From: Promethearchaeota archaeon
GTDB lineage: Archaea; Asgardarchaeota; Lokiarchaeia; Sigyniarchaeales; SOKP01
Assembly: GCA_018238625.1 (NCBI GenBank)
Contig: JABCSY010000064.1
Location: 1-23,042 of the forward strand
Direction of reading: 5' to 3'
Length of the DNA stretch: 23,042 nucleotides
Part shown: in pieces, positions 2,379 to 22,916 of the stretch
Numbering within the stretch: the stretch's first letter is position 1
Layout: each line of letters starts with the position of its first letter
The notes under the pieces: generated by a model
Seen by the model: the letters and a program-made list of their open reading frames with translations, nothing else
Database searches by the model: none
What the model was told of the DNA's origin: nothing
Position numbers and translations under genes: made by a program

Positions 2379-2545
2379 TTATCTTTTTATTATTATTAAC
2401 TTAAGTGAAACATTTTAATCATCTTGTTTCATCTCTTTTTTTATTTTTTTAATGAATAAACACAAAAGTAAACAAGAACAAATTTAAATATTTGAAGAAT
2501 ATGACTTTAATAATAGCTACAGTGGGTGAGAAAAGAGAAAAGAAA

Positions 2546-3706
2546 ATGGAAAATGAAGATAAAATTTGTAGTGAAGTAAAATGTAACCATTGTGGATATA
2601 TTTTTGTCGCGCCTTATCAAGATGATTGTACCTGTAGAAATTGTAATCTTTTTTCGATAAAACTTTTTCGTCTTATATATGGGAAGAACAATTTTGTTAA
2701 TAAAGTAGAATCTAAAGAAGTTAAAAGCATATCGAGTAAAAATATTAAAGGAACAGAAGAGAAAAAGATTGCTAAGAGCCTGTATTTTTACGGAATTGTT
2801 TCAAAAGAGAGAATTCCTATATATTATAACGATGAAAAATGGAAGTATTTTTTAGAGTTAACAAATAATTTAGATTATGTTTCTACGAGAACCTTATCTG
2901 GAACGCTTGATAAAATGTTGATAATTATAGGAAACGAGGGCGAAGTAGAAGAAAATAAGTTAATCGCTCGTTTTTTTGAGAAAAATGGAGTCATACACGT
3001 TCTCATAGGAAATTTTTCAGATAAAGACAGCTATTGGATATTTAATCAGGTTTCAATGTTTTTCAACGATATGGTACAAAAGGATAAAATCAATATTAAA
3101 AAATTGACGAAAATTGAAAAACGTAAGATTTCATTTAAAATGAATATATTCTTAAATTATATAGAAGAAGCAGTCGATTTAAAAGTTAAATTCGAGAAGC
3201 CAAATTTTATTTATTTAGATAATTGGCTCAGACTGCATTATTTTGGATTATCATCTGAATCGGTTGGTGTTATTTCGCTTCTTTTAGATAAAGAGAATAT
3301 TCTAAAATTTGGAGAGCAAAAACACTTTGAGCCTGATTCTGAAAACGATATTTCTGGATTAGTTAAAAAAATTATTGATTTTGGAGAATCAGTCTTAACT
3401 GCAAAAATTGAAGCGATTTTAGCAAGTATTCTTGCAAACATGAAAGGTTATCCAAGATGGATTTCAATAAAATCAGGTTTCCAAAAATATCGTTTTTTTT
3501 CGATTAAAAAACTCGAAAATCAGTTCTATTTATATTGTATTACAGAAGGTAATATAGAAAATCTGGAATCGTTGGAATCATTTCTTTATATGTATTTAAA
3601 AGATGGAGTATCGAATAAATTTACCAGTTCACTAAAGGTTTTTAATGAAATAAAAAATAAAATTCAAGGCACTATAGAAACTATTCCAGAAAGAAAGTTT
3701 TATTAA
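2546..3706 (+). CDS. Hypothetical protein with N-terminal Zn-ribbon and possible longin/roadblock-like domains
   Basis: Long ORF; likely start ATG 2546 (ggtgag upstream; the ORF track starts at TTG 2492). CNHC...CRNC Zn-ribbon. The domain call is inference from the beta/alpha pattern. Confidence 0.6.
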   Translation: MENEDKICSEVKCNHCGYIFVAPYQDDCTCRNCNLFSIKLFRLIYGKNNFVNKVESKEVKSISSKNIKGTEEKKIAKSLYFYGIVSKERIPIYYNDEKWKYFLELTNNLDYVSTRTLSGTLDKMLIIIGNEGEVEENKLIARFFEKNGVIHVLIGNFSDKDSYWIFNQVSMFFNDMVQKDKINIKKLTKIEKRKISFKMNIFLNYIEEAVDLKVKFEKPNFIYLDNWLRLHYFGLSSESVGVISLLLDKENILKFGEQKHFEPDSENDISGLVKKIIDFGESVLTAKIEAILASILANMKGYPRWISIKSGFQKYRFFSIKKLENQFYLYCITEGNIENLESLESFLYMYLKDGVSNKFTSSLKVFNEIKNKIQGTIETIPERKFY

Positions 3707-3801: not shown

Positions 3802-4968
3802 TCATCCTTTTATTCTACGCCAATAAGAACTGATTTTAATATTATCAAAGTCATAAATTTGTATTTTTGAAGTCCACTTATAGGTTTTTAGCCACAGCTT
3901 CCCAGGAAAAGGTTGCCAACCTTTAGTTGGTTGAATACTAAACTCAATTATATCGCCTACACGATTTATATGGAATTCTCCGGCAAATATACCCTTTCGA
4001 TCGTCAATACAACAAGAGAATTTACCTTTAATGTTCACATTACTTTTTAAGGCAATTAAATTAGGAATTGCGGGAGAAAATTCAAAAGAAATAGTATGAC
4101 CAACCCCATCTTCTCCCGAAATTTTTTCTATCTCGTAATAGCCCTCATTGTCTAAAATTTCATAAATCAAATTTTCATTTTTTATCTTTAACTCAGAAGT
4201 ATTTATAAGTATAGGATTTAAGTTTCCGCTATATGAATTGTTCCAATTACTAATAATCGGTTCTAAAGAATAGCGCGCTAAATAAATGTGCATTCCATTC
4301 ATCCGAACAGGCAATTCAACTGGTTTCCTTAGGGTGCCATGAGTTTTCACGAAAATTTCTGTACTTTTTTTTATTACCATACCAAACTTGTCAAGATAAA
4401 TGACTGGGAAATATTTAGGTTTTTTGCTGTCAGCGCCAACTGGAGCCAACATTGCTGTCAAATCTCTTTCAGGAGTATTTTCTTTAATTCGAAACTCGAT
4501 TTCCTTCTCTAATTTGTCTCTTAAGCGGAGATAAGCATCCAATCCCATATTATCTACTTGAAATTTAAAATCTATTTTTTCAAGTTGATTAAACGAAACA
4601 TTAGTGAGTAGATCTTCAATTAATTTCTTTCTATTGTCAATGATTGCTTCATTGGTGTAATAGATGTCTACTAAATCGTCTTTTCTATATAAAAATACAA
4701 GTGGGTATTCCTCATCTACTATACGAAAAATTTGAAGTTCAATTCCGTAGTAGATAGAGTCTTCTTCAAAATCAACAAGCATTAATCGATCTATAGGATC
4801 AAAAGTCATGTTGAATGGAGAAAAAAACATATTTTCAGGGGGATATCCATAAATTTTTAGTGAATTCTTTCGTTTACCTAGATATTTATGGTGATCCACA
4901 ACAACCTCTTTCACCTTTACATTATACATCTTTAAGAAAATTGATGTTAATCTTTTTTTTATACTCAT
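3802..4968 (-). CDS. Hypothetical protein (388 aa), probably co-transcribed with cobO
   Basis: Long ORF starting 14 bp after the cobO stop; no motif recognised. Confidence 0.75.
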   Translation of the reverse strand: MSIKKRLTSIFLKMYNVKVKEVVVDHHKYLGKRKNSLKIYGYPPENMFFSPFNMTFDPIDRLMLVDFEEDSIYYGIELQIFRIVDEEYPLVFLYRKDDLVDIYYTNEAIIDNRKKLIEDLLTNVSFNQLEKIDFKFQVDNMGLDAYLRLRDKLEKEIEFRIKENTPERDLTAMLAPVGADSKKPKYFPVIYLDKFGMVIKKSTEIFVKTHGTLRKPVELPVRMNGMHIYLARYSLEPIISNWNNSYSGNLNPILINTSELKIKNENLIYEILDNEGYYEIEKISGEDGVGHTISFEFSPAIPNLIALKSNVNIKGKFSCCIDDRKGIFAGEFHINRVGDIIEFSIQPTKGWQPFPGKLWLKTYKWTSKIQIYDFDNIKISSYWRRIKG

Positions 4969-4982
4969 TACATCTCTTTTTT

Positions 4983-5551
4983 TTAATATTCAATGCCAAG
5001 ACGAGCTTTAATCCCTTTTGAAGAGTAGTAGTGCTTGATCATTCTCATCTCAGTGAGCAAATCTGCGCGTTCCTTAATTTTAGGATGCATCTTAGGTCCT
5101 CCAGTCATAATTAATTCAACTTTTTCAGGTTTAATATCAATCAATTTTAATACATCGTCGATTTTCACGATTCCAAATTCGACAGCTACTCCTATTTCGT
5201 CAAGAATGACTATATCGTAATCGTCGCTCATAATTATCTTCTCAGCAAACGCCATACCTTTTTTTCCTTCTTCAAAATCAATTTCTCCTGGAGTTGCGAT
5301 TAAATCTGGCGTGCCAAACTGTTTTAATTCGAAGTTTGGAATTCCCTTTACAGCCGTGACTTCCCCATATTGAGGGTATCCTTTCATAAATTGAATCATA
5401 TATACTTTAAATCCATGACCCGTAGCCCGAAAGCCTTGTCCTAAAGCTGCAGTGGTCTTACCTATAGGCATTACTATTTATTTATAGCAATTTTACCCCG
5501 ACCAAAATAGACTTGTACAAGGCCAACATTTAATCTTTTTCTTTCGACCAT
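4983..5551 (-). CDS. cobO: Cob(I)alamin/cob(I)yrinic acid a,c-diamide adenosyltransferase (CobO/BtuR/CobA), split: join(5551..5493, 5463..4983), 179 aa after removal of the insert
   Basis: Exon 1 MVERKRLNVGLVQVYFGRGK plus exon 2 GKTTAALGQGFRATGHGFKVYMIQFMKG...YDIVILDEI...ELIMTG...ADLLTEMRMIKH...ARLGIEY; 59+481=540 nt, in frame. Confidence 0.92.
5464..5492 (-). other. Candidate 29-nt archaeal BHB/BHL-type intron in mRNA
   Basis: RNA reads GGGU-AA^A-AUUGCUAU-AAAUAA-AUAGUAAU-GCCU-AU^A-GGUAAG: a 4-bp helix GGGU/GCCU, 3-nt bulges AAA and AUA, and an 8-bp intron stem. Contains in-frame UAG UAA. Canonical cuts restore GGU AAA GGU AAG. Confidence 0.75.
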
Positions 5552-22219: not shown

Positions 22220-22612
22220 ATGCATAAGGAAGAAATTGGGCTTTTTCTAAAACGAGCTAGAAATTTTTTGGATGGAGCTAAAGAGAGATTTCAGAAAGAA
22301 GATTGGGATTTAACTTGTTTCATGGCAGAACAATCTGTTCAACTTTTTATAAAAGCTATAATTCTAGAAAAAAGTGGTGAAGTTCCCAAAACGCATTCAA
22401 TCAGGAAGTTATTTGGATTAACGTATCAATTGACTAAAGATGAGGTATTCAAATACGATAGAAAAGCCTTAATATTTCTCGAAAGTGCATATTTAAACTC
22501 TAGATATTTTAGCTTTGTTTACGAGAAAGAAGACGCTGAAGAAGCTTTAAAAATTGCTGTAGAGGTAAAAGATCTTGTCGAAAATGTTAGAAATGATGAT
22601 AAGAACGAATGA
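22220..22612 (+). CDS. HEPN-domain protein
   Basis: FLKRARNFL..A, CFMAEQSVQLFIKA, PKTHSIRKL, YLNSRY, DAEEALKIA. Confidence 0.9.
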   Translation: MHKEEIGLFLKRARNFLDGAKERFQKEDWDLTCFMAEQSVQLFIKAIILEKSGEVPKTHSIRKLFGLTYQLTKDEVFKYDRKALIFLESAYLNSRYFSFVYEKEDAEEALKIAVEVKDLVENVRNDDKNE

Positions 22613-22916
22613 TATGATTAAAAATCACAAAAAATATTTAAAAAAAATTGAGAGTAGTATAAAGACTAAATTAAATGATTCTCAAATTTACTTATTTGGG
22701 AGTATACTTAAAGGAGATCTTGTTGCTGGAAGTGATATAGATATCTTAATAATTGCAGATGTTCCTAAAAAACACTTGAAACGAGCAGAATTAATCGCAG
22801 AAATTGAAGAAAATGCCGAATTACCACTTAGTCACCCGTTTGAATTTCATTTATTGACACAAGAAGAATTTATGAGGATATCTCCGGATGGGCGCCTCTG
22901 GGATCGGTGGTTGTAA
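22575..22916 (+). CDS. Minimal nucleotidyltransferase (MNT), partner of HEPN; C-terminus probably replaced from ~22871
   Basis: YLFGSILKGDLVAGSDIDILI (GS-x10-DxD), PFEFHLLTQEEF; overlaps the HEPN gene. Confidence 0.88.
   Translation: MSKMLEMMIRTNDMIKNHKKYLKKIESSIKTKLNDSQIYLFGSILKGDLVAGSDIDILIIADVPKKHLKRAELIAEIEENAELPLSHPFEFHLLTQEEFMRISPDGRLWDRWL

Follow-up and report, generated by a model that had tools for sequence, protein, structure and literature searches.

Results

The cobO gene of a Promethearchaeota archaeon is interrupted, in the middle of the P-loop of the encoded ATP:corrinoid adenosyltransferase, by 29 nt whose exact removal restores a full-length protein, and homologous inserts occupy the same site in ten other Asgard genomes. 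The eleven inserts share an RNA structure with compensatory base changes, and both coding pieces around them are under purifying selection. We consider it probable that the insert is a relaxed bulge-helix-bulge (BHB) intron of an mRNA, of the form called HBh'/BHL, and we infer from the comparison of DNA sequences that it would be cut out by the tRNA splicing endonuclease EndA and the exons ligated by RtcB.

A 29-nt insert splits the P-loop of cobO

The window, by which we mean the whole stretch of 23,042 nucleotides analysed here (contig JABCSY010000064.1 of assembly GCA_018238625.1), carries cobO on its minus strand. The open reading frame that begins at ATG 5551 encodes MVERKRLNVGLVQVYFGRGK, continues with IAINK and ends at a TAG (5476-5474), and a second minus-strand frame (5471-4983), which differs from the first, encodes 162 amino acids beginning MPIGKTT. 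The gene is split by 29 nt (5492-5464) within the second Lys codon of the G-x-G-K-G-K-T-T loop. When these are deleted in silico, 59 nt are joined to 481 nt and a 179-aa protein with GRGKGKTT results, just as the initial annotation had proposed; its coordinates and numbers for the break all proved correct on re-reading and translation. In the window alone the boundary of the insert is ambiguous by one A, removal of 5491-5463 giving the identical product. The parts of the gene are as follows.

5493 to 5551, minus strand: cobO exon 1, from ATG 5551, with 19 codons and the AA of the split Lys codon
5493 to 5551, minus strand: product of exon 1, covering strand beta-1 and the P-loop's first half (MVERKRLNVGLVQVYFGRG-K), aligning with GIIIVFTGNGK of Salmonella CobA by way of the uninterrupted relative P0003
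5464 to 5492, minus strand: insert of 29 nt, the proposed intron, with homologous inserts in 10 other loci
5464 to 5492, minus strand: make-up of the insert, namely base 3 of the 5' bulge, an 8-bp stem with a 6-nt loop, GCCU, and bases 1-2 of the 3' bulge
4983 to 5463, minus strand: cobO exon 2, with the last base of the Lys codon, GKTTAALG and onward, and the stop at 4985-4983; matches PF02572
5571 to 5588, minus strand: TTTTATAGTATAAATTAA, an A/T-rich, TATA-like stretch whose centre is some 26 nt upstream of ATG 5551, from reading of the sequence

The 162-aa frame matches the Pfam family PF02572 (CobA/CobO/BtuR adenosyltransferase) with an E value of 2.6e-46, only over profile positions 14-172 of 172. 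P0003, a protein record whose underlying source is either a DNA or a transcript assembly, covers positions 3-172 and finds the Salmonella CobA structures (4HUT, 1G5R) at an E value of 2e-20. Over the exon 1 stretch it aligns with GIIIVFTGNGKGKTT of these structures, so that strand beta-1 and half of the P-loop are encoded in exon 1. The joined product has the full-length PF02572 domain with its G-x-G-K-G-K-T-T loop. By the spacing usual for archaeal promoters, the TATA-like stretch is a possible promoter of a leaderless cobO mRNA that begins at exon 1. An AdoCbl-dependent methylmalonyl-CoA mutase, its B12-binding subunit and MeaB are also encoded in the window, which argues that the cell needs the adenosyltransferase. 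Genes for EndA and RtcB were not found within the window, ARAGORN reported no tRNA genes in it, and an Rfam scan of it at gathering thresholds returned no matches.

The insert recurs at the same site in eleven Asgard loci

A scan of species-representative genomes for cobO returned 80 loci, from which the Asgard comparison set of 47 rows (the window and 46 loci; L049 is omitted, having been missed by the script pattern) was drawn. An insert lies exactly between GRGK and GKTT in 11 of the 47. It measures 29 nt in three loci (the window, L001 and L002), 30 nt in seven (L003, L004, L005, L009, L011, L019 and L027) and 33 nt in one (L032). Every one of the eleven inserts, even those with a length divisible by three, contains a stop in the frame of exon 1, and both TAG and TAA occur. 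The other 36 Asgard rows have an uninterrupted GRGKGKTT, as does every non-Asgard locus that matched the script pattern. The initial annotation had asked for an alignment of orthologues for presence or absence of the insert, and this is its outcome; the assembly error that it had named as a way to be wrong is ruled out, since eleven independent assemblies carry the insert.

The closest relatives of the gene come from Promethearchaeota (Lokiarchaeia) metagenome-assembled genomes, at 93% identity, and the source names among the relatives include Promethearchaeota, Thorarchaeota, Hodarchaeota and Hermodarchaeota. L006, L008, L037, L051 and P0003 have no insert and carry exactly the predicted junction; P0003 is 93% identical to the spliced protein of the window. 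A protein search with the 162-aa frame gave 1,819 matches, and among the best 120 of these, 101 show an uninterrupted G-x-GKGKT and 19 start at the same break point, 3-6 residues before GKTT. The starts of these 19 read MP[IKR]GKTT, VPIGKTT, MLRGKTT, MIVMPIGKTT or MIVVLIGKTT. They represent clusters at 90% identity, and may in part overlap with the 11 DNA loci.

Purifying selection on both exons

Among the intron-bearing loci, dN/dS of exon 2 lies between 0.03 and 0.26 for all pairs with an estimable (unsaturated) dS. Over the 16 complete exon 1 codons that precede the break, L009 and L011 differ by 0 nonsynonymous and 4 synonymous changes, L004 and L005 by 0 and 3, and the window and L009 by 1.5 and 7.5. 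Both exons are kept by purifying selection in the frames that the joined product requires. The interrupted genes are not pseudogenes, since both pieces are maintained as coding sequence, and the dN/dS that might have betrayed one, as the initial annotation foresaw, is of the opposite kind.

The inserts share a conserved RNA structure

The minimum-energy fold of positions 5445-5512 on the minus strand (68 nt) is exactly the structure drawn in the initial annotation. It has an outer helix (5504-5500 with 5457-5453), an unpaired G5499, a 4-bp central helix GGGU/GCCU, an AAA bulge and an 8-bp stem with one G-U pair and a 6-nt loop, and the 3' splice site falls within an 8-nt loop.

5453 to 5504, minus strand: whole motif, including the candidate outer helix 5504-5500/5457-5453, from the initial annotation and the minimum-energy fold
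5495 to 5498, minus strand: 5' strand of the central helix (H), GGGU, in exon 1, being base 3 of the Arg codon and the Gly codon; pairs with 5466-5469
5466 to 5469, minus strand: 3' strand of the central helix, GCCU, at the 3' end of the intron, from the fold and the alignment
5470 to 5491, minus strand: intron hairpin (h'), with arms 5491-5484/5477-5470 of 8 bp, one of them G-U, and loop 5483-5478; persists in both folds

The structure was reproduced, though it is no more stable than shuffled sequence: its energy of -12.9 kcal/mol corresponds to z = -0.36, and 66 of 200 shuffles were equally stable. In a context of 161 nt the 8-bp stem alone persists. For the other ten intron-bearing sequences the shuffle z-scores range from +0.72 to -2.20, none of them convincing, and folding energy cannot serve as evidence because it is non-significant in the window and in all ten relatives. 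Minimum-energy folding of single sequences recovered the intron hairpin in 8 of 11 and the central helix together with the hairpin in 4 of 11 (the window, L003, L019 with a shift by one, and L027); L009, L011 and L032 fold into other shapes. The bare motif is itself common, since a 4-bp helix, a 3-nt bulge and, stacked on the helix, a stem of 6 bp or more occur 80 times on both strands of the AT-rich window, and 12 times when the stem has at least 8 bp. Judged by position, the chance of finding it in the one register that mends the gene is about 3 in 10,000 to 2 in 1,000, as estimated from the motif scan. What lifts the motif beyond chance is its place exactly at the gene break, in the right register, and its recurrence in 10 other diverged genomes.

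Alignment carries the structure further than energy does. Scored on a 69-column alignment (A2) of the 11 intron-bearing sequences, the proposed structure has 93% of its cells paired, against 29-59% when partners are slid by 1-3 columns. The central helix (columns 12-15 with 45-48) is paired in 43 of 44 cells (97.7%) across the 11 sequences, the one exception being an A.C mismatch in L019; its changes are one-sided only (G-C to G-U, U-G to C-G), with no true compensatory pair. The short database proteins begin M/V-P or M/V-L, that is NUG followed by CCN or CUN, and therefore the same GCC/GCU should be present in the 19 further protein clusters (90% identity). In the h' stem 94.3% of cells are paired across the 11 sequences and three of the eight pairs have changed on both sides (U-A/C-G/A-U; A-U/G-C; U-A/C-G), which supplies the compensatory stem changes that the initial annotation had wished to see checked. 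A 3-nt 5' bulge stands directly between the central helix and h' in all 11.

The outer exon helix of the initial annotation fared worse, for it has no support beyond the clade of the window itself. It is paired in 87% of cells without covariation, and two alternative outer helices, at 88% and 100% of cells and likewise without covariation, are equally good; all three consist of conserved codons. The comparison therefore supports the half formed by central helix, 5' bulge and intron helix, with a relaxed 3' half. In published nomenclature, H with a 5' bulge and an intron helix is the half-motif HBh'/BHL (PMC5829648). The initial annotation had called the motif a relaxed BHL/hBH form; relaxed BHL would be apt, and hBH falls away since the half that is retained includes the intron helix.

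One cutting rule predicts the junction, and the exons follow the proposed intron

In the introns described for cbf5, the predicted cuts lie between the second and third residues of each bulge (PMC2738675).

5492 to 5494, minus strand: 5' bulge, AAA, with the predicted cut after 5493, from the alignment
5463 to 5465, minus strand: 3' bulge or loop segment, AUA, with the predicted cut after 5464, from the alignment

Applied to the eleven loci, this rule restores GRGKGKTT every time (11 of 11) and leaves the frame open as far as the normal stop, for introns of 29, 30 and 33 nt, and the loop of the rejoined product is identical to that of the 36 uninterrupted orthologues. The earlier proposal that cuts after the second bulge base regenerate GKGK thus extends to every interrupted gene. 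The 5' bulge reads AAA in all but one of the 11 sequences, L027 having AAU, so that variation is confined to the third, intronic base, which fixes the cut after the second; it is L027, too, that settles the ambiguous boundary of the window in favour of 5492-5464. The 3' bulge takes the forms AUA, ACA, AAA, AGA and AUG. Its first two bases, which are intronic, vary, and the exonic third is a purine (A or G) throughout the 11, so that the rejoined codon always specifies Lys.

Synonymous sites of the exon tell the same story. Of the 11 intron-bearing genes, 10 have G as the third base of the Arg codon, the pairing partner of the final U of GCCU, whereas 5 of the 36 intron-less genes do (Fisher p = 5.6e-6, uncorrected for phylogeny). 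The first Gly codon ends in T in 9 of 11 against 8 of 36, and the third Gly codon ends in a pyrimidine in 11 of 11 against 19 of 36. Independent contrasts point in the same direction, L032 having G where L037 has A, and L009 and L011 having G where L008 has C. Exon synonymous sites thus follow the presence of the intron, in the direction that pairing would require.

No second case around cobO

A covariance model of the intron (R1) was searched against both strands of the window together with 47 Asgard loci, 284,721 bases in all. Beyond the 11 training sites its best match had an E value of 0.38, so the element is not repeated in these cobO regions. A tblastn screen compared open reading frames of at least 70 aa with all Asgard loci, looking for gene pieces set apart by 10-120 extra bases. 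Blind to exons as short as cobO exon 1, it gave two candidate sites and no second true case: one candidate was the cobO insert itself, reached through an antisense frame, and the other, in L009, a run of N in the assembly. A blastn screen for indels recovered the cobO insert in 11 of 11 loci, which served as its positive control. Twenty-eight other indels, picked by eye from the remaining groups and checked against the map of reading frames, broke no gene, being intergenic, at gene ends or in-frame inside a long reading frame. The overlooked class of micro-introns that the initial annotation had envisaged thus gained no second member in about 308 kb around cobO. Nor did a literature search, which covered subscription journals only in small part, find a published report of an endonuclease-type intron in cobO or in any protein-coding gene of Asgard archaea.

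The proposed intron is scattered on the gene tree

Intron-bearing and intron-less genes are intermingled in a maximum-likelihood tree built from the exon 2 protein; the best tree calls for 7 changes, and well-supported branches force at least 3. A tree that holds the 11 intron-bearing genes together is rejected (p-AU 0.00015), and with it a single origin followed by strictly vertical descent without loss. Scattered as it is, and with the joint grouping rejected, the intron must have been lost or gained several times; it appears to be either old or mobile in Lokiarchaeia-related lineages.

Two observations could be signs of movement. Over the whole gene L032, a locus labelled Hodarchaeota, shares about 90% DNA identity with its intron-less sister L037, its intron stems, central helix and bulges are identical to those of the window's clade, and the synonymous sites at which it departs from L037 are concentrated within some 15 nt of the point of insertion, where they match the flanks of the window's clade. 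L001 and L002 retain, 77 nt upstream, a decayed duplicate of exon 1 that is 38 nt long, as though their 5' end had been exchanged. These hints are suggestive only, because selection for pairing could yield the same flanks. We regard it as rather doubtful, albeit conceivable, that this mRNA intron of the endonuclease type is mobile, or has recently been spreading, among Asgard archaea. If so, it would spread by recombination events that take short stretches of flanking exon with them, or by a reversal of the cut-and-join reaction, and it would be a living example of the gain of a protein-coding intron among the closest archaeal relatives of eukaryotes.

Discussion

Splicing by the tRNA machinery would account for the insert in the following way. 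In the cobO transcript, GGGU, the last four bases of exon 1 before the split Lys codon, would pair with GCCU, the last four paired bases of the intron, and the 3-nt AAA bulge would separate this 4-bp helix from the 8-bp intron hairpin, with the 3' splice site two bases beyond the helix in a loosely structured loop. EndA would cleave after base 2 of each bulge and RtcB would ligate the exons, which would rebuild both the Lys codon and the G-R-G-K-G-K-T-T loop, and the ligated mRNA would be translated into an active adenosyltransferase of 179 aa. A relaxed motif of this kind would suit the enzyme, since Asgard EndA is described as the broad-specificity (alpha-beta)2 type, whose L1 loop permits relaxed motifs (PMC5829648). 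Two EndA paralogues are reported in 44 of 60 Asgard genomes (preprint, bioRxiv 10.64898/2026.10.13.758758).

Some other readings take the same insert as something that is never spliced. The gene may be truly split, translation of exon 1 stopping in the hairpin loop and restarting at an NTG three codons before GKTT, so that a peptide of 25-28 aa and a protein of 162 aa are made and either assemble or leave the large piece to work alone. Gene callers and NCBI do annotate the 162-aa frame as a protein, all 11 loci have a stop in the frame of exon 1 and, shortly before GKTT, an in-frame ATG, GTG or TTG, and in L003 and L005 the ATG follows the stop immediately. However, the NTG is there because U-G is invariant where the stem meets the central helix, and ATG 5471 is not preceded at 5-10 nt by a purine-rich ribosome-binding stretch. 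The changes in the insert are those of compensating base pairs and not those of codons, and its length shifts the frame between 29 and 30 nt. The break moreover bisects the P-loop, leaving exon 2 without Pfam positions 1-13, that is without strand beta-1 and G-x-G-K. We therefore hold a split gene to be improbable. Short inserts with a hairpin and a stop codon inside a conserved reading frame are also known from phage T4 gene 60 and the mitochondrial byp elements, where ribosomes hop across them, and the cobO insert resembles these in each respect and has GGN AAR on both flanks. Yet a Lys landing codon (AAA) stands directly before the GGN of exon 2 in only 2 of 11, the others having ATA, ACA, ATG or AGA, so that take-off and landing codons mismatch in 9 of 11, and the take-off codon has no stop codon after it. 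A hop from Gly to Gly would instead give GRGKTT and lose K-G, two residues that never vary in the 36 uninterrupted Asgard loci or in any pattern-matched non-Asgard locus. The codons are not matched in the way that would yield the conserved protein, and bypassing is very improbable. Frameshifting or stop read-through as a single mechanism is rejected by the three lengths (29, 30 and 33 nt), the different frames they entail and the occurrence of both TAG and TAA.

The interrupted copies might instead be genes that have been inactivated and are being lost, or the insert might be an artefact of assembly, seeing that the gene as written cannot encode a full protein and that exon 1 of L003 and L004 has no canonical start codon. 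The intron-less L051 shares that non-ATG start context, however, none of the 11 has any further frameshift or stop, strong purifying selection acts on both exons at saturated synonymous divergence, and the insert is common to 11 independent assemblies and 19 protein clusters; such an account is very improbable. A conserved RNA with another role, be it a regulatory hairpin or cleavage site that limits CobO, or an element removed by enzymes other than EndA and RtcB, would fit the fact that the hairpin is the best supported element and that the 3' half does not match a strict BHB. A functional enzyme would still demand exact removal, and a 4-bp helix with cuts at fixed offsets, present in 11 of 11, is the signature of the endonuclease motif; we think this alternative unlikely. 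Removal as a relaxed BHB intron remains the reading that we prefer.

The nearest known counterpart of such an intron is that of cbf5 in Crenarchaeota, the only protein-coding family that we found described with an intron of the endonuclease type (PMC2738675). The pre-mRNA intron of cbf5 in Desulfurococcales and Sulfolobales is similarly short (16-44 bp, against 29-33 nt here), sits in the codon of a key active-site residue, and has an unconventional, relaxed BHB-like fold with cuts between bulge bases 2 and 3 (PMC2738675). It is handled by a hetero-oligomeric EndA and has a patchy distribution with gains and losses, to which the cobO intron can be likened (PMC2738675). The two differ in their hosts, Cbf5 being an RNA-modification enzyme (a pseudouridine synthase) of the TACK superphylum whereas CobO is a metabolic enzyme of Asgard archaea, and in phase, the cobO intron lying between bases 2 and 3 of a Lys codon and that of cbf5 between bases 1 and 2 of an Asp codon. 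They also differ in that cbf5 splicing was demonstrated by cDNA while cobO splicing is deduced from DNA comparison. As the host gene belongs to PF02572 and the intron is not in the catalytic Asp codon that marks the cbf5 family, the cobO intron would work like that of cbf5 but outside its family.

The non-canonical (HBh'/hBH/BHL) tRNA introns of Asgard archaea and Thermoproteales would share with the cobO intron both motif and enzymes, and Asgard genomes are reported to be rich in them, 92-95% of tRNA genes being interrupted in three complete Asgard genomes (PMC11291895; bioRxiv 10.64898/2026.10.13.758758). In cobO, by contrast, the RNA that carries the motif is an mRNA and lacks a tRNA body that could aid recognition, and the motif's exon half is made up of codons, where it would be visible as the bias at synonymous sites.

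The cobO intron would thus add to a known but very small kind, the endonuclease-type introns of mRNAs. Intron-bearing cobO genes are now annotated as 162-aa proteins that lack half the P-loop, and B12 metabolism in these genomes may be misjudged because of it. With a second family, and this a metabolic gene in intron-rich Asgard archaea, the tRNA splicing machinery would service mRNAs more widely, and the cobO insert offers a concrete substrate on which Asgard EndA can be tested. Its presence and absence between close relatives would also make intron gain and intron loss in a coding gene directly open to study in the lineage nearest to eukaryotes.

Gene content around cobO

Besides cobO, the gene for an ATP:corrinoid adenosyltransferase, the window carries the following features:

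2-993 region, +: fragment of carB (carbamoyl-phosphate synthase large chain), stop codon at 887-889
1157-1871, 2492-3706 (+) and 3802-4968 (-): ORFs of 88, 138, 404 and 388 aa
16223-19371, -: adenosylcobalamin-dependent enzyme cluster (methylmalonyl-CoA mutase catalytic chain, B12-binding subunit and MeaB GTPase)
22220-22916, +: overlapping HEPN-domain and nucleotidyltransferase-domain ORFs

In the carB fragment the second ATP-grasp domain is broken off after only ~25 residues, and the tail of an unrelated ORF, in a different frame from carB, continues to ~993 (+); this tail presumably resembles the C-terminus of a MaoC/hotdog-type protein. The region may represent either the remnant of a gene or the junction of a rearrangement. 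GC content falls to 23% over 1001-2000. None of the ORFs of 88, 138, 404 and 388 aa had a Pfam match at E <= 0.001; the 388-aa ORF is on the cobO strand and lies 15 nt 3' of that gene's stop codon. Within the adenosylcobalamin-dependent cluster, the B12-binding subunit is encoded by a separate ORF that overlaps the methylmalonyl-CoA mutase catalytic chain by 34 nt. The overlap of the HEPN and nucleotidyltransferase ORFs is an arrangement typical of a toxin-antitoxin-type pair.

Elsewhere, an apparent 14-nt insert returned by the split-gene screen at ~4046-4056 of the Asgard locus L009 was rejected, as it is a run of N marking a scaffold gap within a conserved gene.

The 5' end of cobO in related loci

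Two intron-bearing Asgard loci, L001 (2854-2891) and L002 (2855-2891), carry a degenerate direct copy of part of cobO exon 1 (37-38 nt, 81-82% identity), which lies 77 nt upstream of the true exon 1 and ends immediately 5' of the Gly-Arg-Gly codons. The copy may be a leftover from a swap of the cobO 5' end; no such decayed duplicate was found in the window. Between intron-bearing L032 (2959-3027) and its intron-less sister L037, genes that are otherwise ~90% identical, synonymous differences are concentrated within ~15 nt of the intron site. Owing to these clustered differences, L032 and the window's clade have identical intron flanks.

The start context of cobO varies among relatives. Upstream of exon 1, L003, L004 and L051 have ATA (IIRKRL), and L005 and L006 have ATG (IMRKRL). 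No ATG, GTG or TTG occurs across the exon 1 frame of L004, and the same is true of L051. Given that L051 lacks the intron and yet shows the same oddity as L004, the oddity is a trait of the lineage, and cobO in L003, L004 and L051 may use a non-canonical start codon.
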